From the UHGV virus genome UHGV-0209794: a stretch of DNA of 41,598 bases; one strand, 5' to 3'. The notes below the pieces were generated by a model, which searched no databases, had not been told where the DNA came from, and saw nothing but the letters and a program-made list of their open reading frames with translations. This document shows positions 250 through 41,598 of the stretch, piece by piece. The first letter of the stretch is position 1. Every line of letters starts with the position of its first letter. Source of the stretch: a virus. Position numbers and translations under genes: made by a program.

Positions 250-1049
250 GTAAGCATCAAATTAAACACCCCGTGATCCGTTATCACGGAGGTAAATTTC
301 GTTTAGCAAAATGGATATTAAGTTATTTTCCAGAGCATCGTTGCTATGTAGAGCCCTTTGGTGGAGTTGCTAGCGTCTTAATGCAGAAAGAACGTAGCTA
401 TGCAGAAATATATAATGATCTAGATAGTGAAGTTGTAAATCTATTCAAGGTATTAAGAGATCCTGAATTAAACATTAAGTTACAAGAGGCTTGCTTACTT
501 ACTGCTTATTCCCGTGACGAGTTTATGTTAGCTAAAGAGTTTATTGATAATCCATTAGAGAGAGCTAGACGTATGGTTGTTCGCGCTTGCATGGGGTTTG
601 GTTCTGCTTCTGGTTTAAACGGTAACTCGGGATTTCAGTCTGATAGTAAACGTGAATATTCAATCTACTCACATTTGTGGGCTAAATATCCTGAAAACTT
701 ATCTGCAGTTTGTCAGCGTTTGCAGGGAGTCATTATTGAAAATAAGCCGGCATTAGATCTGATTAAAAAACATGACGCCACTGATACTCTATTTTATTTA
801 GATCCTCCATATATGCCTGAAACACGAGTGAGTGGTAATCGTTATTACAACTTTGAAATGACTAATGGGCAACATCATGAGTTACTGCAAATTATTAAGT
901 CTGTTTCTGGAAAAGTAATTATCAGTGGCTATCACTCGAATTTATATGATGATGAATTATCAGGCTGGAGAAAAGTAACCAAAGAGGCTTGTATTTCTGC
1001 CGGTCGTGGTACCAAAATTCGTACTGAATGTTTGTGGATGAATTATTGA
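246..1049 (+). CDS. DNA N6-adenine methyltransferase, Dam-like D12 class (orphan)
   Basis: N-terminal YVEPFGGVASVL (motif I, FxGxG-like) and later LDPPYMPE (motif IV, DPPY). The order and length (267 aa) are typical of phage Dam-like MTases. Confidence 0.75.
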   Translation: MSKHQIKHPVIRYHGGKFRLAKWILSYFPEHRCYVEPFGGVASVLMQKERSYAEIYNDLDSEVVNLFKVLRDPELNIKLQEACLLTAYSRDEFMLAKEFIDNPLERARRMVVRACMGFGSASGLNGNSGFQSDSKREYSIYSHLWAKYPENLSAVCQRLQGVIIENKPALDLIKKHDATDTLFYLDPPYMPETRVSGNRYYNFEMTNGQHHELLQIIKSVSGKVIISGYHSNLYDDELSGWRKVTKEACISAGRGTKIRTECLWMNY

Positions 1050-1059
1050 GGTAAGATCA

Positions 1060-1398
1060 ATGGCAAAAACAGTAGCAGAACGTAAAGCGGAACAACGTAA
1101 ACGGCAGAAAGAATTAGGTGTAACTAAAATTGAATTGCTTGTAGATAATCAAGAATTGGAAATGATAAAGCGTAATTGTGTATTGCGCATGCCTGGTCGA
1201 GAACCGTATGGCATTATTGAATACCTACAGATGCTTATTCGGAAAGATGATGCTGAGTATAAAAAGCAAGTAGAGAAATTATCTAAACGTAAATGTAAGC
1301 GTTGTGGTGATATATTACCTGTTCAGCAATGTTGTATGTCAGGTGATTCCGAATGTTGGGTCACTAGTGGATACAAAGAGTTGAAACTGGTTATCTAA
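1060..1398 (+). CDS. hypothetical Cys-rich small protein
   Basis: 112-aa ORF with a C-terminal CKRCGD...CCMSGDSEC cluster (possible Zn ribbon). Tight spacing after the MTase. Confidence 0.4.
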   Translation: MAKTVAERKAEQRKRQKELGVTKIELLVDNQELEMIKRNCVLRMPGREPYGIIEYLQMLIRKDDAEYKKQVEKLSKRKCKRCGDILPVQQCCMSGDSECWVTSGYKELKLVI

Positions 1399-1475: not shown

Positions 1476-2069
1476 ATGGCACAGCATAGCTTTATCAAAA
1501 TGTCTAACGATACTCTTGTACCGGCTAACCCTGTTACGAGAGATTTTCTGCATTCAAAAATCAAGTGTGGTGATGTGCTTTCAGCTAATTTTAAGAAAGC
1601 TCGTAACCCTCGATTTCATCGTAAATACTTCGCATTACTCAACTTAGGCTATGAATATTGGGAACCAGTTGGCGGTACCATTTCACCTGAGGAGAGGGAG
1701 CTTGTGCGTGGTTACATCACATTCCTTTCGTATCACACGGATAATGCTGACGCGCTCTTATCAGCATCCGATATCTATCTAGAAGAAGTCGCACAAAAAC
1801 GTGCGCAAAATATCTCAGCAACAAAATCATTTGATGCTTTTCGCTATTGGGTTGTAGAGCAAGCCGGTTATTACGATACGTTTGAAATGCCTGACGGTAG
1901 TTTACGTCGTGTCGCTAAATCAATCAGCTTTGCAAATATGGACGACTTAGCATTTAGCGAACTCTACAAAGCCACACTCGATGTGCTTTGGAATTTTATC
2001 CTTCGTAAACAGTTCCCCACTCAAAAAGCTGTAGAAAATGCAGTATCTCAATTATTAAGTTTCACGTAG
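1476..2069 (+). CDS. conserved phage protein of nin-like region (possibly DUF1367-like)
   Basis: 197-aa ORF sitting between the MTase and nuclease/Q genes. The family assignment is from memory only. Confidence 0.4.
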   Translation: MAQHSFIKMSNDTLVPANPVTRDFLHSKIKCGDVLSANFKKARNPRFHRKYFALLNLGYEYWEPVGGTISPEERELVRGYITFLSYHTDNADALLSASDIYLEEVAQKRAQNISATKSFDAFRYWVVEQAGYYDTFEMPDGSLRRVAKSISFANMDDLAFSELYKATLDVLWNFILRKQFPTQKAVENAVSQLLSFT

Positions 2070-2080
2070 AGGCAAGACCA

Positions 2081-2392
2081 ATGATCAAATCAAAGACCAA
2101 AGAAGAAAGACAGTGGCTATCAGATGTAGCAGAACTGGGTTGTATTTGTTGTCGCAATATGGGGCTTGGGGCAAGTAGAGCGGAAATACATCATGTTAGA
2201 ACAGGGCAGGGAATGGCACAGCGAGCCAGTCATACAGATGTTTTACCACTGTGTCCGCCACATCATAGGGCATGTTATGAAACCGGCTTTCATGCATCAC
2301 CTAAATCATGGCAAGAAATTCATGGTAGCGAGATTGAGTTATTAGAACAGACTAAGCAAGAAGTAATGGAGTTACGAGCATGTCGAGTATAA
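2081..2392 (+). CDS. YbcO-like (DUF1364) putative Zn-binding nuclease
   Basis: 103 aa with a CxxC...HH...CPPHH pattern resembling DLP12 YbcO. It lies directly upstream of Q, as in lambda-type phages. The start codon is preceded by the AGAGGCAAGACCA motif. Confidence 0.5.
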   Translation: MIKSKTKEERQWLSDVAELGCICCRNMGLGASRAEIHHVRTGQGMAQRASHTDVLPLCPPHHRACYETGFHASPKSWQEIHGSEIELLEQTKQEVMELRACRV

Positions 2393-5611: not shown

Positions 5612-6073
5612 ATGAAGCACTGGAAACTTTACATTGTCGTTGTGATGGTGGGGATTGTTGTTGGTGGTTGTGTACTGATTAATGCACAAACTAAAAGAAT
5701 TAACATACTGATAGAAAAGAACAAAGAACTTACTACAACACTCGAAGAACAAAAGGCTATCAATACTGAATATCAAGTGCGCATAGAGCGACTCAATCAA
5801 CTTGATACAAGACACACACAGGAGCTTGTTAATGCAAAGAATGAAATTAGTCGCTTGCGTGATCTTAGCGAGCGTAATCCTGAGCGGGTGTACATCAAAG
5901 CTGAGTGTCCAAAAAGCGCTACCACTTCCACCTCCAGCGTGGCTAATGCAACCACCGCCCGACCTACTGACACCGCTATCAGAAATTATTGGTTACTCAG
6001 AGAGCGAATAACACAGTCTGAGCAAATGATATTAGGGCTACAAGATTACATTAGGCAGGAGTGCGTAAACTAA
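5612..6073 (+). CDS. i-spanin (Rz-like)
   Basis: N-terminal TM (LYIVVVMVGIVVGGCVL), a coiled-coil periplasmic domain, and an embedded +1-frame lipoprotein ORF. Confidence 0.7.
   Translation: MKHWKLYIVVVMVGIVVGGCVLINAQTKRINILIEKNKELTTTLEEQKAINTEYQVRIERLNQLDTRHTQELVNAKNEISRLRDLSERNPERVYIKAECPKSATTSTSSVANATTARPTDTAIRNYWLLRERITQSEQMILGLQDYIRQECVN
5832..6011 (+). CDS. o-spanin (Rz1-like lipoprotein) embedded in Rz
   Basis: MQRMKLVACVILASVILSGC has a lipobox (LSGC), followed by a proline-rich mature part (LPLPPPAWLMQPPPDLL). It lies entirely inside Rz in another frame, with AGGAG 8 nt upstream of ATG 5832. Confidence 0.65.
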   Translation: MQRMKLVACVILASVILSGCTSKLSVQKALPLPPPAWLMQPPPDLLTPLSEIIGYSESE

Positions 6074-6549
6074 AGTTTATTTAATTTTTCTCTAATACGT
6101 TTTTTTATGGCTCTATATGAGCGCTGGTACTCGCGGGATTTAATTGCATCTCTACCATCAGCGCGTTTAGCACCATCGGGCAGTAAATTGTGCTCGATAT
6201 TAGATGCTCGTTCTGATTGTTCTGCTAAATCGAAATCTCTACGTTGTGAGCGCTCTGATCCAACTGCTAATTCTGTTGCTGTGGATAAATGGGAGTAATC
6301 AATTTTACCCTCATCAATAATTCGCTGTAATTTTTCTCTGTGTTTCTGGCGGTAGGCAACACCAGCTAGAGGTGTAGTGGCTGGGATATTAAATTTATCC
6401 CTATAATCACTCAGGGTCATATGATGAATTTTAGTGATGTGATTAGCGAGAAATGAAAAACGTTTCCCGCACTCCAGGCATTCAATTTTATCGTGAGCTA
6501 GATATTCTGCTAGCTCCTCGCGATTATTGATGCGTTTATTCGTCATCAC
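6070..6549 (-). CDS. Ros/MucR-family zinc-finger DNA-binding protein
   Basis: CLECGKRFSFLANHITKIHHMTLSDYRDKFNIPATTPLAGVAYRQ matches the Ros/MucR C2H2-like zinc-finger signature (CxxC...HxxxHH, MT..EYR.K). 159 aa. Confidence 0.6.
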   Translation of the reverse strand: MMTNKRINNREELAEYLAHDKIECLECGKRFSFLANHITKIHHMTLSDYRDKFNIPATTPLAGVAYRQKHREKLQRIIDEGKIDYSHLSTATELAVGSERSQRRDFDLAEQSERASNIEHNLLPDGAKRADGRDAIKSREYQRSYRAIKKRIREKLNKL

Positions 6550-7456: not shown

Positions 7457-7845
7457 TTTGAAACCCTCTGGTTATCGGTCGGGACCGTTCCCTTACCGTG
7501 ATTAAATAATATCACTGTCCTAATATTAGGTCAATAAATTTATTCGATATATTGTGATTTGAACCACAAATAGTTGCCTCACAATAGTGGGGGGGCCATA
7601 AGGCGTCGCATTGTCGCCGTCTCTTATGTTAGCCATGACCTGTTTTATTCTCAGCAGATAGCGCATAGTGAGAGTCAAAAACAATGAATACCGCCATTTT
7701 GTTATTTTTCGGTCATTATCAGCAACGTCAGCTGTAGGTAGAAGAAAGGGCGTGACAACCGGAGAGACGAGTACAATTCATAAGAGTCAATCACAAAGCC
7801 TATTTTAACGAATGGGCTTTTTAATAGGCTAAGGAGATAAACACA

Positions 7846-32508: not shown

Positions 32509-32679
32509 TTATTGTTCACTCCTTTGTTGCTCCGCGGGAGTAGGCTGAAGTTCAATTTTGACGTGTGCAGGAAAATCGTATGAAACATGGCAACGTCTAT
32601 CTGTTGAAACAAAACCGTATGATCCATCTGGTAATGTGATTTTTACTGCTTGGTCTTTTTGTTGGGAGTGTCTTAGCAT
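32509..32679 (-). CDS. hypothetical small protein
   Basis: Start set at the internal ATG 32679 (MLRHSQQKDQ...), which is immediately preceded by AAAGAGGCAAGACCA. 56 aa. Confidence 0.35.
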   Translation of the reverse strand: MLRHSQQKDQAVKITLPDGSYGFVSTDRRCHVSYDFPAHVKIELQPTPAEQQRSEQ

Positions 32680-32934
32680 TGGTCTTGCCTCTTTGTGACA
32701 TGTCACACTAATGAATAATAGCTGTATTTATAGGGCGCCCCAGTTGTAGCAATAACGCTTTTTGCATCGATGAAAGTGCTTGCTGTTCTTGCTCTGTGAC
32801 ATTTTTTGTTGATGCCGTAGACCATTCGATACTGCATTTATTTGTTGTTTCATCATGGGTAATAACAACTTCTAACTTCATGGCCATAACGTTTATCTCC
32901 TGATAATGCGCCCAAGAAAGGGCGCTATTATGAA

Positions 32935-33435
32935 TTAACGAACCATTAATGAACGTTCACCAACTTCAAGATGTGCTCCGGGAATTTCAATACCATTTTC
33001 AAGCGCTTCTTTGATTCCTTTTTTATCGGGCGCTGTGATGGTTTTAACATCAACCAACTCATCTGGTAGTAGTGCTTCATTATCAATAATTACTGAAACA
33101 CTACCTTTTCGTGCTGTAAATGTATTCTTTGTTGTTTTTAATTTATCTAATCCTGAAGCCAATAAGCAGTTAAGAGCATATTCCTTTAGGTTTTTAGCTT
33201 GGTTTTCGAATGATTTTTTACGATCAGATAAACGTTTAGATTCTTCATCAAGTGTTTTAGCTTGACCTTCGATATTGCGAACGTGGTGCATAATTGCATC
33301 CAATTTGTCACCTAACTCGCCCTCGATACCTGCCAATGTATCTGCGATATCTTCAGCAGTGAATTCTCCTGTTTCAACGAGTTGCTGTAATTTTTCATAA
33401 TTGGTCGCCAGTGCGATAGCGGTAGTATTGGTCAT
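32935..33435 (-). CDS. Gp157-family protein (Sipho_Gp157-like)
   Basis: 166 aa from MTNTTAIALATNYEKLQQLVETGEFTAEDIADTLAGIEGEL... Lies directly downstream of the annealing-protein gene (TAATG overlap), the usual Sak/Gp157 pairing. Confidence 0.5.
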   Translation of the reverse strand: MTNTTAIALATNYEKLQQLVETGEFTAEDIADTLAGIEGELGDKLDAIMHHVRNIEGQAKTLDEESKRLSDRKKSFENQAKNLKEYALNCLLASGLDKLKTTKNTFTARKGSVSVIIDNEALLPDELVDVKTITAPDKKGIKEALENGIEIPGAHLEVGERSLMVR

Positions 33436-35402
33436 TAGATTGCCTCTTCTTTCTGTTTCAGTTTGTCTAAACACTCTTTTTCGATTTGGTTTAATCGACG
33501 TAAACGGCCAGACAAATACTTCTCGTAATCTTCGTCACGACGTTCTTTGGCTGATTTAATATGTGCAGAAATTTCGCGTGTTAATGTCGATGCAATACCT
33601 CGTAATTCATTTGCTGTAACAGCACTACGCATCACTTCTGTATGTTTAGTAAATTTCTCGTCTAATTCTTTGCGAATACGTGTGATATCTTCCGCTTTTT
33701 CACTGGCATTTTTGATTTCAAACTCAAGCTTATTGCTTACTATATATTCAGGGTTATCATGCATACCCATAAAGACATCAGAGCTAAAACCAAGCATCGA
33801 TAGGGCTTTTTTGATGGCATCAGTGAGTGATTTTTTAATAGCTTCACCATCAACTTTAATGCCATAGTTAGTTTGATAGCGGTATGGTGTTGCACCATAG
33901 CTTTCAAATTCACCGCGGGTTTCACATTCGATGATGTACCAAAAACGGATCTTAATTGAGTGGTTTTGTTCGCAGAATAACGAGCCATCAGCATCACGTA
34001 AAAAACGGGTTGCGACTTGTTTATTACGCTCATCAAGGACAGGTTCTAAAAGAGGCTTTCCATCAATAAATTTTTCTTCAAGGACTTCATATCCCCAACC
34101 TTCACCAATAGGACCGAATATTTCAGTTGCACGCATAAACATGTAAGTGCTGTTTATACTGGTTCCCGTAAATCCCACGCCTTCTAATGGCTTAGTAAAG
34201 CGCGGGTCTGTACGTTGTACTTGTTTCCAAATACTTAGGTTATTAGCGTCACTCGCGTTAAGAACTTCATCAATAACACTGGCACGTTGCTCAAAATTAT
34301 CTTGTTGTGCTGATGGTGTTTCGGGTTCTTTAGGCTCTACAGTTTGTTCAACCACCGGAGAACTTTCTGTTTTAGGGGCTACTTCTTGCTTTTTACGTGA
34401 ACGTTTAGGCTTAGTTTCCTTTTCAACGGTACTTTTGCTAGATACCGAAGGGGTATTATCCAATTGGTTAGAAGTGATACTTTCTTCTTTTTCAGCATTG
34501 CCAGTAGGCTTGTTAATACCTAAATGACGGTCAATAAATTCTTTTCGCGCATTGGGATTATCTAATAACTCAGGCTGTTTTTTACTTTCAGCTATTAACG
34601 AGAAAATCTTTTCACGTGGTATATCCAAGATGCCAGCTGTTGTGCGTAAATCCATTGACCAGCGTTTCCATGCTTTGTCGTCGTCATCTATCAGTTCTTT
34701 GGCTTTTTTTACTTGAGATGCGAGGACATTATTAGGATCAAAGTCATCTAACAGTGCTAAGGCAATTTCGGTATCTATGGTTGAATAGTTACGTTTGATA
34801 GAAGATGTTTCTTCTTGTTGTTGTTCTGGTTCTTCGGTTAGCCAGCTTTCACCTAATGATTTAGCTTCTTCAACGGTGACATCTTCATTAGCAAACTCAT
34901 AGATAGCCTGTGCTATTTCCATTGTTTGCTCAGCATCCATCAAAGAAAGTTTTGTTATTTCAGCTAGGCCTGTAGCGATATTACGAATTTTGGGATCTTC
35001 TTTTCCTGCCAAATATTCCAGAGCAGTTGAAAACTCATTGTTAGTTATTTGAGTCTTTCCAAATAAAAGTAAACACGCAATTCTGGGCTTCGTTCCTAGT
35101 TTTTTGAAATTCTTATATTCAATAGGTTTCCATTGAGTTCCATCAAACTCATTTTCAACAGCAAATTTCTCATCGAATATATCTAAAGTAGGGCAAACAG
35201 AGCCGTCAAGGTGTTCGCTAATTAACGGATCATCAGTGTTAAAGTTATCCATAGCTTCTGGATATGCTTCAGATAATTTTACTACTGCAGTCGCTGTTGC
35301 CAGTTTTGCATTAGCGGTGTTTAACGCTATGGCCAGCGGTACAGCACCGTTGTTTGTACGAGCCTCGGTCGTAGGCTCAAATACACAGATAAAAGTTTTC
35401 AT
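33435..35402 (-). CDS. Rad52/Sak-type single-strand annealing protein fused to large N-terminal domain
   Basis: C-terminal region GVGFTGTS...IFGPIGEGWGYEV...YGATPYRYQTNYGIKVDGEAIKKSLTDAIKKALSMLGF parallels the Rad52 core (GFGTS...IFGYNGWSTEV...YGT...AKKSAVTDALKRSLRGFG). The N-terminal ~380 aa are unrelated and include a K/E/S/P-rich linker. Start is preceded by AAAAGAGGCAAGACCA. Confidence 0.6.
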   Translation of the reverse strand: MKTFICVFEPTTEARTNNGAVPLAIALNTANAKLATATAVVKLSEAYPEAMDNFNTDDPLISEHLDGSVCPTLDIFDEKFAVENEFDGTQWKPIEYKNFKKLGTKPRIACLLLFGKTQITNNEFSTALEYLAGKEDPKIRNIATGLAEITKLSLMDAEQTMEIAQAIYEFANEDVTVEEAKSLGESWLTEEPEQQQEETSSIKRNYSTIDTEIALALLDDFDPNNVLASQVKKAKELIDDDDKAWKRWSMDLRTTAGILDIPREKIFSLIAESKKQPELLDNPNARKEFIDRHLGINKPTGNAEKEESITSNQLDNTPSVSSKSTVEKETKPKRSRKKQEVAPKTESSPVVEQTVEPKEPETPSAQQDNFEQRASVIDEVLNASDANNLSIWKQVQRTDPRFTKPLEGVGFTGTSINSTYMFMRATEIFGPIGEGWGYEVLEEKFIDGKPLLEPVLDERNKQVATRFLRDADGSLFCEQNHSIKIRFWYIIECETRGEFESYGATPYRYQTNYGIKVDGEAIKKSLTDAIKKALSMLGFSSDVFMGMHDNPEYIVSNKLEFEIKNASEKAEDITRIRKELDEKFTKHTEVMRSAVTANELRGIASTLTREISAHIKSAKERRDEDYEKYLSGRLRRLNQIEKECLDKLKQKEEAI

Positions 35403-35416
35403 TGGTCTTGCCTCTT

Positions 35417-35712: not shown

Positions 35713-36045
35713 CTAATAAGGGATTTCTTCGTCGGTTTTTGAAATGGGTTTGCCTTCCAAGCAGAGAAGCATTTGGATTTGATCTTCTAACAAGCTTGTT
35801 TTTACTTGGGCATCAGCTAGGATTTTTTCTTGTTCATTACGTAGAAAATCAATTTCAGCGTGAATGAGATCAGTTTGAGTAGGCTCTTTAAAAGGAACAT
35901 CAACAGTGTGTTCAGCAATAACAAAACCTAGTCCAGCATTGGGATCGGCTTTAAATGCGTAGGCTTTATATTGGTAAGAACCATCGAACTGTTTTTGAGC
36001 ATGAATATAGAGTGTGACTGTTAGGCTTTCAGGTTGTGCTTTCAT
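35713..36045 (-). CDS. hypothetical early protein
   Basis: 110-aa ORF with an AAGGAG RBS. Confidence 0.4.
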   Translation of the reverse strand: MKAQPESLTVTLYIHAQKQFDGSYQYKAYAFKADPNAGLGFVIAEHTVDVPFKEPTQTDLIHAEIDFLRNEQEKILADAQVKTSLLEDQIQMLLCLEGKPISKTDEEIPY

Positions 36046-36068
36046 AGCAACTCCTTTAAAATAACTGC

Positions 36069-36185
36069 GATCAGTGATTTATCATTGGTCTTGCCTCTTC
36101 TAGCGTTTGGTCGCGCTAGTAGAACTCTCGGTTAGCTTTGGTCGGCGACCCGAGGTAAAGGAACCCACTTCGGTGGGTTTTTTTA
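36069..36185 (+). ncRNA. candidate antisense sRNA carrying complement of the shared AGAGGCAAGACCA translation-initiation motif
   Basis: TTGTGC-N17-TAAAAT promoter-like hexamers at 36034-36062. Strong plus-strand intrinsic terminator AACCCAC-TTCG-GTGGGTT plus T7 at 36162-36184, in a region where all annotated genes are minus-strand. The transcript would contain CAUUGGUCUUGCCUCUU. Confidence 0.3.
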
Positions 36186-36318
36186 CATCTTCATCAAATT
36201 CAAGAGTTGCAATTTTATTGTCGGCACAACAATTGAATACTGTTTCAGGGAAAAGATTGCAAAGGTTTAAGACATTATCCAACTTAATGTTTTCCATTTT
36301 ATTTTTACCTATATGCAT
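36100..36318 (-). CDS. hypothetical first gene of leftward early operon (uncertain)
   Basis: 72-aa ORF, but its 3' third overlaps a strong plus-strand terminator hairpin. The C-terminus may be an artefact. Confidence 0.25.
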   Translation of the reverse strand: MHIGKNKMENIKLDNVLNLCNLFPETVFNCCADNKIATLEFDEDVKKPTEVGSFTSGRRPKLTESSTSATKR

Positions 36319-36676
36319 AATATGTCTCCTGTCATTTATGATATTGCTAGTCTAATTTTGGTGATTGGTGGTAGGTGCTTATCTCCTACTTTCGGTCTTG
36401 TTGTGCAAGTATCCGCGTGGGTTAAGTGTCCACTGCTAATCAGCCTTAGCGTTCACCAATCCCAAAAATTGTGTGCCGTCTTTCCGAGCTGTCAGGTCTG
36501 CCTTGTAGCTTTGGTCTGTAACTAATTTAATTCCCTGGTATTGCTAAAAAATCTGCTGTTATGCCGTGGTAATCATGACAGGTCGCGATGAGAGCTGTGG
36601 TTCTCCTCCGACATAACAGCAAAACTAAATCTGAACACTGACCTAAACACTTGCTGTGTTGTTTTTGGTTGCTTTA

Positions 36677-36717
36677 ATATTAGCGTTGCTATTTTAATTG
36701 TCAATAGCATTGCTAAT
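36677..36717 (-). promoter_or_regulatory. pL-like promoter with OL operators
   Basis: On the minus strand, TTGACA (36699-36704) -N16/17- TAATAT (36677-36682). Overlapping palindromic operators AATAGCATTGCTAAT (36703-36717) and ATTAGCGTTGCTAT (36679-36692). Confidence 0.5.
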
Positions 36718-36727
36718 ATTTTGAGTT

Positions 36728-36753
36728 AAAAAAAACCACCGTATCGACGGTGG
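36728..36753 (-). terminator. rho-independent terminator of repressor gene
   Basis: On the minus strand, CCACCGT-cgat-ACGGTGG followed by T8, directly after the cI-like stop. Confidence 0.6.
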
Positions 36754-36775
36754 TTGTATGTAACACATTGTTATT

Positions 36776-37534
36776 TTATGCAAAATCAATCATTTTAATA
36801 GGAAGTGATTTTATTACTTTTCCAATAATTCGGAGATCATACATTTCTGACTCTTCAATATAAAACGTTTCATAAGCAGGATTATCTGATTTAACAGCTA
36901 GTTTTCTGCCCTTAACTCTTTGTAATCTTTTTATAAATAATGAATTTTCAAAACTAAACACATAAACACCATCGCCATCAAAAAATTCATTATGAGTATC
37001 AACAAAAACGACATCTCTTGGGTTTATTGCTGGAGACATGCTGTCACCGCTAATATTAATTATTTCAATCCCTTTTAAACTTTTTCTACCGAATAAATCG
37101 AATACTTTTTCTGGTGAGAATTCAATAGATTTTATAGTGTCAGGGAATTCGTTATTTATAAAGCCACCGGGGCCTGCTTTTGCATATACATCCATCAGTC
37201 TTAACGTCGTATGTTCATTTTGAGTTGATGTAGAAGAAGTTATTTGTTTTATTTCTTCTTCTTTTCCTGTTCGCCTAACGTAGTCTAACAATGTTTTTAG
37301 CTCTGGATTAATATCTTCAGGATCAACTTTCAATAATGATGCGAATTTTAGAATTGTATCAGTATTTAAGGCTGTTCGGCCATTTAAATACTGGCTTACT
37401 GCACCTTGAGTAGCAAAACCCATAATCTCTGCGGCTTTTTCTTGAGTCAAGCCCAGAGATTCTCGTTTTGCTTCCCAAATGTTTCGTAAGTTTCGGGCGG
37501 CAATTTTATCTGATTCTGATATTTTTCTGTTCAT
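36776..37534 (-). CDS. cI-like repressor (XRE HTH + S24 LexA-like autopeptidase)
   Basis: N-terminal HTH (LGLTQEKAAEIMGFATQGAVSQYLNG). C-terminal GDSMSPAI (Ser) and FIKRL (Lys) peptidase S24 motifs. Divergent from a cro-like gene. Confidence 0.8.
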   Translation of the reverse strand: MNRKISESDKIAARNLRNIWEAKRESLGLTQEKAAEIMGFATQGAVSQYLNGRTALNTDTILKFASLLKVDPEDINPELKTLLDYVRRTGKEEEIKQITSSTSTQNEHTTLRLMDVYAKAGPGGFINNEFPDTIKSIEFSPEKVFDLFGRKSLKGIEIINISGDSMSPAINPRDVVFVDTHNEFFDGDGVYVFSFENSLFIKRLQRVKGRKLAVKSDNPAYETFYIEESEMYDLRIIGKVIKSLPIKMIDFA

Positions 37535-37544
37535 TTTAGTATTT

Positions 37545-37612
37545 TATTTGTAATGCTAATAATTATCCAATAGCATTGCTATTGATTTATTAAATTAGCA
37601 CTGCTAATATTC
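37545..37612. promoter_or_regulatory. OR operator cluster with pR
   Basis: Palindromes AATAGCATTGCTATT (37569-37583) and ATTAGCACTGCTAAT (37594-37608) plus a half-site near 37548. pR is TTGATT (37582-37587) -N17- TAATAT (37605-37610), then GGAGGA and ATG 37639. Confidence 0.5.
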
Positions 37613-37638: not shown

Positions 37639-37896
37639 ATGAAATTAGATCTGTATTTAAAAAAACAAAAAATCAGCCAAACTGAATTTGGGAAATCGGT
37701 TGGAGTAACTCAAGGGTTTATTAGTCAAGTTATTGCTGGTTGCTACTACCCTAAAGGTCGAAAAGCTATCGAATGGTCAGCAAAAACTAATTGGTTAGTA
37801 ACTCCACATGATCTTAATCCAGTTGATTATCCAAATCCTTGGGATGGCTTACCAAAAGGAGTATTCAGTATTACAGGTATCAAATTAAAAAACTGA
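37639..37896 (+). CDS. Cro-like HTH regulator (YdaS-like)
   Basis: 85 aa with HTH QTEFGKSVGVTQGFISQVIAG. First gene of the rightward operon. Confidence 0.6.
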   Translation: MKLDLYLKKQKISQTEFGKSVGVTQGFISQVIAGCYYPKGRKAIEWSAKTNWLVTPHDLNPVDYPNPWDGLPKGVFSITGIKLKN

Positions 37897-37936: not shown

Positions 37937-38392
37937 ATGAATTTTGATATCAACATTATCAGAGCTGAAATTGAGGACTGGGCTGTAGAACAAGGGCAAG
38001 AACATGTTGCTATTGAGATTAGCCGAGCTTACTTACGATTAGTGATTAATCAAGAACATGGTCGATTACATGCCATTGAGGATCAAACGGGTAAGGCCGA
38101 CTGGAAAGCAATAAACAATAACCGGCAACAGATATTCCGTTGGTTACGTGGTGATTCTCGCGCATCTCAAAGAAAAATTGCTGAGTTAATGCCAGCGATT
38201 GAAATGGCTCTACCGGCTTCGAGGTTAGCTCGAGTACGTGGAGATACAAAAAACTATTTAGCAACCGTGGCCATTCAGCGTTTTGCTGATGCTATGACTG
38301 AAATCTTATTAGAGGGTCGTGACATGTCACACCAAATAAACAATGTAGTACGTGCACTAAATGAGATATCACGCCCGACCAGCGTGCATTAA
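37937..38392 (+). CDS. YdaT-like regulator (cII-position protein)
   Basis: NRQQIFRWLRGDSRASQRKIAELMPAIEMALP parallels Rac YdaT (NQQNIYHRWLKGETKTQREKIQKLIPAILAILP). 151 aa. Confidence 0.5.
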   Translation: MNFDINIIRAEIEDWAVEQGQEHVAIEISRAYLRLVINQEHGRLHAIEDQTGKADWKAINNNRQQIFRWLRGDSRASQRKIAELMPAIEMALPASRLARVRGDTKNYLATVAIQRFADAMTEILLEGRDMSHQINNVVRALNEISRPTSVH

Positions 38393-38409
38393 TTCAAGAG
38401 GCAAGACCA

Positions 38410-38634
38410 ATGATTAGATCAACTGAAAAAATCACATACCGCAATGGGTTTATGCTGAATGATAAACCTGCTCATATCTCAGATATCCAACATATTTTTG
38501 ATGGTAGACGCGTTATTGCGTTGTTAATTTGGGAGCAGTATGAGCGAGAAAAACAAAAATTACTGTCAAAAAATTTAACCCCTGAGCAGTACCAAAATGC
38601 TTGCCGTAATATAGCTAAAGCACTGGGGGTGTGA
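38410..38634 (+). CDS. hypothetical small protein
   Basis: 74-aa ORF; start preceded by CAAGAGGCAAGACCA. Confidence 0.4.
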   Translation: MIRSTEKITYRNGFMLNDKPAHISDIQHIFDGRRVIALLIWEQYEREKQKLLSKNLTPEQYQNACRNIAKALGV

Positions 38635-41415: not shown

Positions 41416-41434
41416 TTAAAACAGAGGCAAGACC

Positions 41435-41598
41435 ATGACAATTAAAGACTCTCTTACTCACGAATCTCTCGTTCGTGATAATCACCCTATATTACCCGAC
41501 GATGGGTTAGACCATACACAGTGTCATATTGATCGCCTCCATGCATCAGCAAGAGCGAGAACAAAAGCACCTTATCAACCTAAGGTTAAACCACAAAA
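41435..41598 (+). CDS. hypothetical protein (5' partial, runs off window)
   Basis: ATG 41435 is preceded by ACAGAGGCAAGACC. The frame is open to the window end. Confidence 0.3.
   Translation, partial: MTIKDSLTHESLVRDNHPILPDDGLDHTQCHIDRLHASARARTKAPYQPKVKPQ

Follow-up and report, generated by a model that had tools for sequence, protein, structure and literature searches.

What lies around position 36,100 of the viral genome UHGV-0209794, where the first-pass annotation had seen an intrinsic terminator on the plus strand within a block of minus-strand genes, and what an RNA made there might act on, are the questions raised by this locus; the window is the whole stretch of DNA that was analyzed, 41,598 nucleotides in length. 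That annotation had postulated a promoter, a stretch complementary to a shared translation initiation motif (the anti-motif), a terminator, and a mini-ORF on the opposite strand; a sequence check recovered all four where it had placed them. The candidate sRNA gene sits within the leftward early (pL) operon of a lambdoid prophage, and consists of the following parts.

36034-36062, plus strand: predicted sigma-70 promoter of the sRNA, from the sequence; TTGTGC (36034-36039), 17-nt spacer, TAAAAT (36057-36062)
36069-36184, plus strand: predicted sRNA, about 116 nt, 5' end inferred from the -10 hexamer
36069-36090, plus strand: hairpin 1 (predicted fold)
36083-36098, plus strand: anti-motif CAUUGGUCUUGCCUCU, from the sequence
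36091-36097, plus strand: exposed seed between hairpins 1 and 2
36100-36119, plus strand: hairpin 2 with loop UUUGGUCG (predicted fold)
36127-36154, plus strand: hairpin 3 with loop GCUUUGGUCGGC (predicted fold)
36156-36184, plus strand: terminator hairpin region (predicted fold)
36162-36184, plus strand: intrinsic terminator, from the sequence; stem-loop AACCCAC-UUCG-GUGGGUU (36162-36179) and U run

A 119-nt plus-strand stretch folds with a minimum free energy of -51 kcal/mol, compared to -30.6 +/- 3.2 for shuffled sequences (z = -6.3), and our own family model R1 scores the window sRNA at 138.8 bits. The T run of the terminator (36178-36184) counts seven T, two of them within the stem; the terminator scan missed it because greedy G-U extension of the stem consumed the T run. 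The promoter overlaps the start codon and Shine-Dalgarno sequence of a 110-aa gene on the opposite strand; its -35 hexamer, located in coding sequence, is weak and matches the consensus at three of six positions, and it fell below the threshold of the promoter scan. The originally proposed promoter is correct in its position and its -10 hexamer is conserved, but a strong -35 is not part of it. An alternative promoter from the scan, TTAAAA-18-TATCAT (36056-36085), was rejected; its TATCAT is lost in Yersinia-type members of the family. Since promoter and terminator were both missed by the scans, their support comes instead from conservation across relatives.

More than 55 distinct relatives of the sRNA were found in prophages of at least 10 genera, with Proteus, Providencia, Morganella, Xenorhabdus, Photorhabdus, Yersinia, Serratia, and Pectobacterium among the hosts. 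All of them keep the -10 as TAAAAT, TATATT, TATACT, TATAAT, or TATAGT (TAnnnT), often with an extended TGn, and the distance from the -10 to hairpin 1 is fixed throughout this set; four genome matches (L136, L140, L145, and L151) were excluded as chance matches without hairpins. Compensatory changes occur in helices 2 and 3 and in the terminator (13 pairs changed on both sides, 72 cells), and 93.5% of the cells are paired, compared to 86.1% in shuffled and 26-54% in slid controls; in the terminator, CCCAC/GUGGG is replaced by CUGCC/GGCGG while the U tract remains constant. Pairing drops from 93.5% on the plus strand to 73.8% on the minus strand, and 173 G-U cells stand against 11 A-C cells; this excess identifies the plus strand as the folding, functional strand. 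The same data bear on a reading without any plus-strand RNA, in which the hairpins belong to the pL mRNA as a processing site, a nut/put-like element, or a terminator (tL1-like or bidirectional), or in which the terminator serves only to end stray transcription from the convergent direction. The stem of the terminator is indeed palindromic and has an A run on its other side, model R1 finds a weak minus-strand match (17.7 bits), and the minus-strand fold of a wider region is mildly stable (z = -2.3); yet the strand bias in pairing and in G-U versus A-C cells, the conservation of U tract and -10 on the plus strand, the lack of an upstream plus-strand gene whose transcript would need termination here, and the detection of the homologue IsrB as a plus-sense RNA (PMC2330248) make this explanation very improbable.

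IsrB (isrB-1 and isrB-2, of the Salmonella prophages Gifsy-2 and Gifsy-1) is likewise a prophage sRNA of the early left operon. In a permissive local search, the Rfam isrB model (RF01386) matched the window sRNA with 33.0 bits (E 1.7e-4 to 5.9e-4), below its curated threshold of 35; model positions 1-87 were fully matched, and a 42-nt insertion in the window sRNA holds the seed. At the gathering threshold, Rfam gave no match in the whole window; matches to rsmX, istR, and other Rfam families were rejected as weak. Conversely, model R1 finds Gifsy-2 IsrB as its best match in 16 kb, with 36.6 bits and an E value of about 4e-9 by a rough calibration. Both RNAs share a 3' module, a GCUUUGGUCGG-loop hairpin followed by a CCCACUUCGGUGGG-U terminator, and both lie near a recE/sbcA-type exonuclease gene with flanking genes transcribed in the opposite direction: the RecE-like gene of the window (33435-35402, minus strand) is two genes away from the sRNA, and Gifsy-2 isrB is located between exoVIII and STM1010, in the orientation "<- -> <-" relative to its flanking genes and beside recE/sbcA (PMC2330248). 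In contrast to IsrB, which has 88 or 94 nt and lacks hairpin 2 and the UUGGUCUUGCCUC seed, the window sRNA has about 116 nt and four hairpins, and so falls outside the IsrB pattern of about 88-94 nt with a 5' hairpin, an internal hairpin, and a terminator; what is new relative to IsrB is the 5' module that carries the invariant UUGGUCUUGCCU(C). Northern blots and primer extension have revealed IsrB as a transcript (PMC2330248); it also appears among ProQ-associated RNAs (PMC5391140), and its enrichment with Hfq is only 2-fold (PMC2515195). No paper describing a function of IsrB was found in the literature searched on IsrB and prophage sRNAs. This kinship, the conserved -10, the compensatory changes, and the asymmetry of G-U and A-C cells bear out the plus-strand sRNA gene of the first-pass annotation. 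BLAST searches with the element and its surroundings gave no match among the INPHARED phages (near and distant modes) or complete E. coli genomes, so that, at this sensitivity, the element is absent from deposited cultured phages and from E. coli prophages; a full-text literature search for the motif strings found no paper.

The block UUGGUCUUGCCU (36085-36096), followed by C, is invariant in every family member, and its complement is a sequence that recurs before start codons, the start-site tag GAGGCAAGACCA(A); a longer form of the anti-motif, CATTGGTCTTGCCTCTT, spans 36083-36099 on the plus strand. Placed between hairpins 1 and 2, the invariant seed 5'-UUGGUCUUGCCUC-3' is partly exposed: UUGCC is predicted to be unpaired (p about 0.98), and CAUUGGUC lies in hairpin 1 as its weak, G-U-rich 3' arm. 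Opening 7 nt of the seed core costs 3.0 kcal/mol, and opening 16 nt costs 12.8 kcal/mol; duplex energies computed on whole molecules are inflated and were left out of quantitative use. In the predicted fold, hairpin 1 takes up half of the 16-nt anti-motif and an extension of hairpin 2 pairs UCU, which counts against pairing in trans; the anti-motif is nevertheless the sole invariant, largely unpaired stretch of the sRNA. It remains unchanged in relatives that have lost the minus-strand ATG, where the 5' arm of hairpin 1 changes in a compensating way, and thus is not preserved as a start site. A conserved and accessible seed that is complementary to several ribosome-binding sites is what a trans-acting sRNA is expected to have, and the window sRNA has one. 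Pairing with start sites alone, however, leaves the UUGGUC motif unexplained, which is displayed three times in or beside the loops of the sRNA, is invariant in the loops of hairpins 2 and 3, and in one case is common to the seedless IsrB; this also counts against the trans reading.

The tag copies of the window, and the genes that they head, are listed here.

2068-2083, plus strand: exact tag heading a 103-aa HNH/Ref-like gene (2081-2392), from the sequence
38397-38412, plus strand: exact tag heading a 74-aa gene after the CII-like gene (phrog_2465), from the sequence
35400-35415, minus strand: exact tag heading the RecE-like exonuclease gene (33435-35402), from the sequence
32677-32692, minus strand: exact tag heading a 56-aa gene (ATG 32679, phrog_2482), from the sequence
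36071-36098, minus strand: local tag copy with the 4-codon mini-ORF MINH*, in the pL transcript, from the sequence
41423-41438, plus strand: tag variant AGAGGCAAGACCATG, shorter by one A, before a gene that is cut off by the window end
1047-1062, plus strand: degenerate tag TGAGGTAAGATCAATG with 3 mismatches, heading a 112-aa regulator gene; doubtful target, from the sequence

The exact 16-mer AGAGGCAAGACCAATG occurs five times in the window (2068 and 38397 on the plus strand; 35400, 32677, and the local copy at 36083 on the minus strand), and 8 matches with at most three mismatches compare to 0.31 expected; none of 100 shuffles reached 8, and the match at 7671 (plus strand) was set aside as a probable chance hit. 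The sRNA is complementary to the initiation regions of several genes, as had been claimed, but the "at least six" other genes of the first pass shrink to four exact targets, one close, and one degenerate. The tags stand at intercistronic junctions, 10-20 nt past the preceding stop codon, and cover the Shine-Dalgarno sequence and spacer of several internal cistrons in both early operons, always on the transcribed strand. Beyond the tag copies, the GACCAA hexamer is modestly enriched in the early regions. The local copy heads a mini-ORF (ATG ATA AAT CAC TGA, 36085-36071, minus strand) that is four codons long, as originally described, without being conserved: its length and frame vary and its ATG is missing in the Yersinia-type (GACCAACGG) and Pectobacterium-type (GACCAATACC) copies, and a conserved leader peptide was rejected on these grounds. 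The local tag copy with its mini-ORF is probably nothing more than the reverse of the sRNA, and it may act as a decoy.

Tag and sRNA travel together in the relatives. Of 80 loci picked solely by homology of a CII-like protein, 79 carry the sRNA; the remaining one has only 706 bases left of the match, too short to reach the sRNA site. Each relative phage has 2-7 copies of the tag; 76 counted CII-like loci (1.36 Mb) contain 385 extra tag 12-mers compared to 0.16 expected, every one of them sense to the early transcripts and nearly all immediately before an ATG, and 244 kb fetched by the sRNA pattern alone contain 72 extra tags compared to about 2 expected, with GAG before 66 and ATG after 65 of them. 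All relatives examined have both the tag and the sRNA, with the tag read exclusively as sense to the early transcripts; being drawn from related phages, this co-occurrence is not phylogenetically independent. Viral contigs that bear the tag and seemed to lack the sRNA (39 among the matches listed) were an artefact, partly of short stretches; 18 of the 39 recurred in the CII-like loci, all 18 with the sRNA, and 3 more turned up when scanning for the sRNA pattern. In the targets, conservation begins and ends exactly where the invariant block of the sRNA does, and flank positions co-vary; such covariation may also stem from descent or from gene conversion between copies of the tag, and an invariant seed leaves true covariation of seed and target unscorable. 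In Gifsy-2, both the seed (in IsrB) and the tag are absent; its start sites show only scattered, unpatterned 8-10-mers complementary to IsrB, and the regulon idea therefore does not extend to canonical IsrB.

Since the invariant, exposed stretch of the sRNA exactly complements a 12-16-base tag before several early genes, one RNA probably represses a set of early genes. Our preferred reading, which the comparative data make fairly probable, is that of a phage regulatory sRNA of about 116 nt, a distant and enlarged relative of IsrB that would be transcribed from its own promoter against pL and would pair through its seed with tagged early genes; the invariant unpaired anti-motif and the co-occurring sense-strand tag lend comparative support to antisense action in trans as first suggested. 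It is distinctly less probable, to the point of being doubtful, that the tag GAGGCAAGACCA owes its conservation to something other than the sRNA, as a binding site of a phage or host RNA-binding protein (a RegA-like translational operator or enhancer), an RNA processing site, a linker favoring modular recombination, or an intercistronic cassette, and that the sRNA acts otherwise, for instance by using its UUGGUC loops to sequester a protein. The intercistronic placement shortly past a stop codon, the RecE-like recombination function that these phages encode, the resemblance of three UUGGUC motifs in or beside loops to repeated protein-binding motifs, and the ProQ association of IsrB (PMC5391140) agree with such a role; yet the exact complementarity between the tag and the seed of a neighboring sRNA, and the joint absence of both in Gifsy-2, would be left unexplained, and a linker at the DNA level needs no strand specificity relative to transcription.

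Further relevant features lie along the opposing pL transcript and around its promoter.

36495-36516, minus strand: pL leader RNA site; GACCAAAGCUA, complementary to the hairpin-3 loop (11 nt), then CAAGGCAGACC
36677-36704, minus strand: pL-like promoter TTGACA-16-TAATAT between operator-like palindromes
36734-36755: cI terminator
36100-36318, minus strand: 72-aa ORF, running through the terminator hairpin

In the leader site, CAAGGCAGACC is a degenerate seed complement; relatives carry cleaner sites, such as CCGACCAAAGCUACAAGGCAAGACC. Many relatives have a non-coding pL leader site with a seed complement of 10-14 nt, and in Proteus/Providencia relatives the leader additionally matches the hairpin-3 loop over 13 nt; judged from this conservation, the sRNA probably acts on the pL transcript besides the start sites. 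The terminator hairpin overlaps the 3' part of the 72-aa ORF, as noted in the first pass. The first 42 codons of this ORF lie in an insert of about 272 nt (36193 to about 36464) that is missing from relatives, and its last 30 codons read the sRNA gene from the opposite strand; with an insert-derived start and an sRNA-antisense end, it falls outside the element, and neither this ORF nor the 4-codon mini-ORF should be annotated as part of it.

The whole sRNA is antisense to the pL transcript, between the leader (or the 72-aa ORF) and the 110-aa gene; in its opposite strand and full complementarity it has the marks of a cis-antisense RNA, with which action in trans is still compatible. A real sRNA that works exclusively in cis, in the manner of OOP or IsrB, by RNase III cleavage, transcriptional interference, or premature termination on the pL transcript and its leader site, with an independent tag whose local copy merely underlies the sRNA, appears unlikely. 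The perfect complementarity to the pL mRNA just upstream of its first conserved gene, the bipartite leader site conserved in many relatives, and the seedless IsrB at the equivalent place of Gifsy-2, where no tag regulon exists, speak for it; but complementarity is automatic in cis and makes an invariant 12-nt block needless, the block persists while stems drift and the minus-strand ATG disappears, and neither the coincidence of block and tag edges nor the strand specificity of all 385 extra tags follows from it.

If the regulatory sRNA acts on tagged genes as preferred here, the exposed UUGCCUC would nucleate on the GAGGCAA Shine-Dalgarno region of tagged mRNAs, and pairing would spread into the weak, G-U-rich hairpin 1 and cover the AUG; 30S binding would be blocked, and decay by RNase III or RNase E probably triggered. 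In the lysogen, for which expression is modeled on that of IsrB from resident Gifsy prophages, the sRNA would hold down leaky tagged early genes, the RecE-like exonuclease gene among them. Upon induction, strong pL transcription would collide with the sRNA promoter, and the full complement and leader site made from pL would titrate the sRNA and free the regulon. A bolder extension, speculative but possible, would make the sRNA the master switch of the tagged regulon, flipped by pL titration, and also a cross-immunity weapon against heteroimmune relatives that bear the tag: a prophage would silence its own leaky early genes together with the tagged early genes of incoming relatives, through a 12-13-nt "zip code" that related phages share across many Enterobacterales genera, irrespective of the specificity of their repressors.

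Several phage systems offer partial parallels. P22 sar and lambda OOP are short antisense RNAs of temperate phages that have their own promoters, are directed against an early operon, and end at an intrinsic terminator; sar covers the ribosome-binding site of ant, OOP targets cII, and both are strictly cis-encoded. They differ from the window sRNA in having a single target and no multi-gene tag. The CI RNA of satellite phage P4, processed from the same transcript on which it acts, pairs through its conserved segment seqB with repeated seqA and seqC sites in the early operon leader and causes premature transcription termination on one transcript; its sites resemble the pL leader site described here, but sequence and structure are unrelated. 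T4 RegA is a translational repressor protein that binds a loose AU-rich element where translation of many early mRNAs is initiated; it likewise is one regulator with an element shared by early mRNAs, where the present proposal has an RNA and an exact 12-13-mer. The c4 RNA of P1/P7, which serves phage immunity, matures from a longer precursor and has two sites on one transcript (icd-ant); in the account of Citron and Schuster of 1990, it reportedly pairs in trans with short sites overlapping the ribosome-binding site and thereby shuts off an early function. Short complementary sites in trans at the ribosome-binding site are common to c4 and the window sRNA, but fold and genomic context differ, and the Rfam C4 model had no match at E<=10 in 35900-36800, where sar and OOP were unmatched as well. 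Of the analogy to c4 and sar in the first-pass annotation, the idea of a multi-target antisense RNA is supported; as the closest family, IsrB takes their place.

To our knowledge, the antisense RNAs of temperate phages (OOP, sar, c4, and P4 CI) each have a single transcript as their target. In this prophage, one sRNA appears to fit an exact tag that several cistrons of both early operons share, and the tag is conserved over at least 10 genera and different immunity types. If this reading is true, the sRNA would be the RNA counterpart of a protein regulon such as that of T4 RegA, and would add a layer of lysogeny control that is separate from the repressor; it would account for the odd, invariant spacer between Shine-Dalgarno sequence and AUG, and would provide a testable function for a relative of IsrB, a family that was detected in 2008.

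The window is a lambdoid-type prophage, and the putative sRNA gene (36069-36184, plus strand) lies within its pL operon on the opposite strand. Leftward from pL, a ~190-nt leader is followed by a 72-aa ORF, genes of 110 and 94 aa and the RecE-like exonuclease gene, the sRNA element being placed between the 72-aa ORF and the 110-aa gene. The sRNA contains a stretch (36083-36098, the anti-motif), holding the seed, that is complementary to a start-site motif found before early genes (the tag).

Features of the early region of the prophage
37937-38392: CII-like gene
37639-37896, plus strand: Cro-like gene
36776-37534, minus strand: CI-like repressor gene, facing the Cro-like gene
36734-36755, minus strand: terminator ending the repressor gene
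36677-36704, minus strand: pL-like promoter TTGACA-16-TAATAT, beyond the repressor terminator and between operator-like palindromes
36495-36516: site in the pL leader complementary to the sRNA, matching the hairpin-3 loop over 11 nt and the seed in degenerate form
36100-36318, minus strand: 72-aa ORF, starting inside an insert and running through the sRNA antisense to the first stop
33435-35402, leftward from pL: RecE-like exonuclease gene

Palindromes resembling operators, of the form ATAGCAnnGCTAT, are present between cI and cro (37567-37585) as well as around the pL-like promoter (~36680-36730), which fits a classical immunity region. In the relative locus L020 (6206-7770), the repressor gene is directly followed by two additional, inserted genes (247 and 274 aa) that look like defence or abortive-infection cargo and displace pL further off.

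Homologs of the sRNA were recovered by nhmmer from motif-fetched loci (61 matches, 48 distinct) and by scanning a genome collection with an RNA-specific pattern (36 loci, 32 genuine), giving 55 distinct family sequences in combination; the 32 genuine loci come from Providencia, Proteus, Morganella, Xenorhabdus, Photorhabdus, Yersinia, Rouxiella, Serratia, Pectobacterium, Symbiopectobacterium, and one record labelled Martelella. This last (L147 6568-6769, labelled Martelella alba) is a genuine, rather divergent member with three tagged start sites nearby, on a contig attributed to an alphaproteobacterium; the label is probably due to contamination or to mislabelling of an Enterobacterales prophage.

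The sequences quoted in the first-pass annotation, which had proposed a trans-acting antisense sRNA at 36034-36185, are all present there. Simple promoter and terminator scans found neither of the sRNA signals: the -35 element matches at three of six positions, and the terminator was missed because G-U pairing let its stem grow too long and reach into the T run. On the plus strand, the 119-nt stretch is predicted to form four hairpins, with an MFE of -51 kcal/mol (shuffles -30.6 +/- 3.2, z -6.3). In a 26-sequence alignment, compensatory substitutions occur in hairpins 2 and 3 (CUAGCG/CGCUAG is replaced by CUGACG/CGUCAG or GGGGCGG/CCACCCC) and in the terminator stem (CCCAC/GUGGG by CUGCC/GGCGG). 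The four-hairpin structure pairs in 93.5% of cells, against 86.1% in shuffles (0/500 reach the observed value) and 26-54% with slid partners; changes on both sides involve 13 pairs and 72 cells, and G-U cells outnumber A-C cells by 173 to 11. On the minus strand the same helices pair in 73.8% of cells. The -10 hexamer stays a -10 across relatives despite sequence change (TAAAAT, TATATT, TATACT, TATAAT, TATAGT, often preceded by TGn), and a U tract stands behind the terminator in every member. Together, the compensatory changes, the G-U and strand asymmetries, the conserved -10 and the U tract speak for a ~116-nt transcript from the plus strand, its 5' end placed from the -10, and make it highly improbable that the conserved entity is a minus-strand structure or a terminator only.

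The element had no match in cultured-phage records or E. coli genomes, none above threshold in Rfam, and none in the literature searched. A permissive Rfam search aligned it with isrB (RF01386), the Salmonella Gifsy prophage sRNA, over the full model length (33.0 bits, E 2e-4; threshold 35), with a 42-nt insertion relative to the model that carries the anti-motif and hairpin 2. Gifsy-2 isrB (5993-6080) is flanked by the exonuclease VIII (recE/sbcA) gene and STM1010 and lies on the strand opposite to them, a neighbourhood and orientation identical to those of the sRNA considered here; R1, a covariance model built from the latter's own family, has IsrB as its best match in 16 kb of Gifsy-2 (36.6 bits, E ~4e-9, a rough value). 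IsrB-1 and IsrB-2 are RNAs of 88 and 94 nt, detected by northern blot and primer extension (PMC2330248); no paper describing their function was found in the literature searched. Since 3' module, context and orientation are shared, whereas the curated score and the size of the family are missed, the element is best described as an enlarged, distant IsrB relative.

Within the anti-motif, all members have the block UUGGUCUUGCCU (36085-36096) unchanged, in most cases with C after it. UUGCC is predicted to be unpaired in the ensemble (p~0.98), and opening would cost 3.0 kcal/mol for UUGCCUC and 12.8 kcal/mol for the whole 16 nt; the 3' arm of hairpin 1 is CAUUGGUC, with which the 5' arm is predicted to pair largely by G-U. 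The Yersinia type (GCCGUUGGUC) has lost the minus-strand ATG, its hairpin-1 5' arm being altered so that the helix is kept, and the Pectobacterium and Serratia type is without any start codon on that strand; the block is invariant in both. As the mini-ORF on the minus strand differs in length and frame among relatives, the block is not being kept as a start site. Action in cis only, from a gene antisense to the pL operon, is an unlikely reading, as a purely cis antisense RNA would not need this invariance. The hairpin-3 loop is slightly less constrained than the seed, since L274 (6346-6479) and L280 (5866-6000), two relative loci, have single changes in this otherwise constant loop (CTTTGGTCAG, CTGTGGTCGG) with the seed intact.

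The exact 16-mer AGAGGCAAGACCAATG occurs five times in the window (2068+, 38397+, 35400-, 32677- and the local copy at 36083-), next to a copy one base shorter at 41423+ and a degenerate one at 1047+; at up to three mismatches there are 8 matches against 0.31 expected. Each non-local copy directly precedes an early-gene ATG. The proposal that the complementary motif heads other genes thus holds for four exact, one close and one degenerate copy, and its count of at least six other genes was overstated. Across the 32 genome loci retrieved with the sRNA pattern (244 kb), 72 further GCAAGACCA copies were counted (~2 expected), 58 of them distinct in their flanks; GAG precedes 66/72, and ATG follows within 9 nt in 65/72. 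Information content falls sharply beyond GAGGCAAGACCA(A), the exact complement of the invariant sRNA block. A second count used 80 loci picked by CII-like protein homology alone (61-100% identity): the sRNA was present in 79, always on the CII strand, and the 80th has just 706 bases left of the CII-like match, too short to reach the sRNA site. In 76 non-identical loci (1.36 Mb), the 12-mer has 385 extra copies where 0.16 would be expected, and each phage carries 2-7 of them. The 189 copies on the plus strand are all found right of the sRNA, within the pR operon; of the 196 on the minus strand, 185 fall left of it, within the pL operon, and the other 11 in the pL leader, so that all are in the sense orientation of an early transcript. 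The early region of Gifsy-2, whose IsrB is without the seed, has no tag copy and no start-site pattern complementary to IsrB. Retention of the tag for a protein or for recombination appears quite improbable. Where the sRNA has CCUCG, 6/10 targets have CGAGG, against 3/62 elsewhere (Fisher p ~1e-4), and of the three AAGG targets, two belong to the lone locus with CCUU in the sRNA (p 0.007); this co-variation is partial and could also stem from gene conversion or common descent. Two Xenorhabdus loci (L134 1638, L150 2514) have tag variants in which one half is duplicated (GAGGCAAGACCAAGACCATGA), and other copies have GACCA and then 1-3 extra bases before ATG; tag-to-start-codon spacing is therefore not fixed.

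The 72-aa ORF falls outside the sRNA element. It arises from a moron-like insertion (36193 to about 36464, ~272 nt) between leader and sRNA terminator, which is missing from L122, a relative with another immunity region, and replaced by different DNA in other relatives; the ORF has a good Shine-Dalgarno sequence and no PHROG match, and over its last 30 codons it runs antisense to the sRNA gene. The leader itself (36462-36672, minus strand) is kept even in L122; within it lie a long, imperfectly paired hairpin, GCUGUUAUGUCGG...CCACGGCAUAACAGC (MFE z -2.5), and what may be a 13-codon ORF, MSEENHSSHRDLS, and its conserved stretch could be a nut/put-like or processing site. Just past the terminator, many relatives have same-strand repeats of sRNA parts. 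In Proteus and Providencia such a repeat unites seed and hairpin-3 loop (GGTCTTGCCTTGTAGCTTTGGTCGG is an example), in Yersinia and others it is a 10-14-nt seed copy, and in Xenorhabdus it is made up of fragments of seed and hairpin-2 loop. A non-coding site complementary to the sRNA is thus present in the pL leader RNA; in relatives with both parts, the order of the halves fits antiparallel two-site binding. The site in the window recalls those of P4 CI RNA and P1 c4 RNA, which use leader sites, and this complementarity suggests that the sRNA may act on the pL transcript in addition to the start sites.

A prophage antisense sRNA is a known class and IsrB, its nearest family, is known as well; neither the extra seed module nor the multi-cistron tag is. 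Most probably, the sRNA would be produced in the lysogen from a promoter without operator sequences, and its exposed anti-Shine-Dalgarno core would pair in trans with the start sites that bear the tag, blocking translation from them. On induction, convergent pL transcription and the complementary pL RNA would neutralise the sRNA, which may thus serve as a titration switch.
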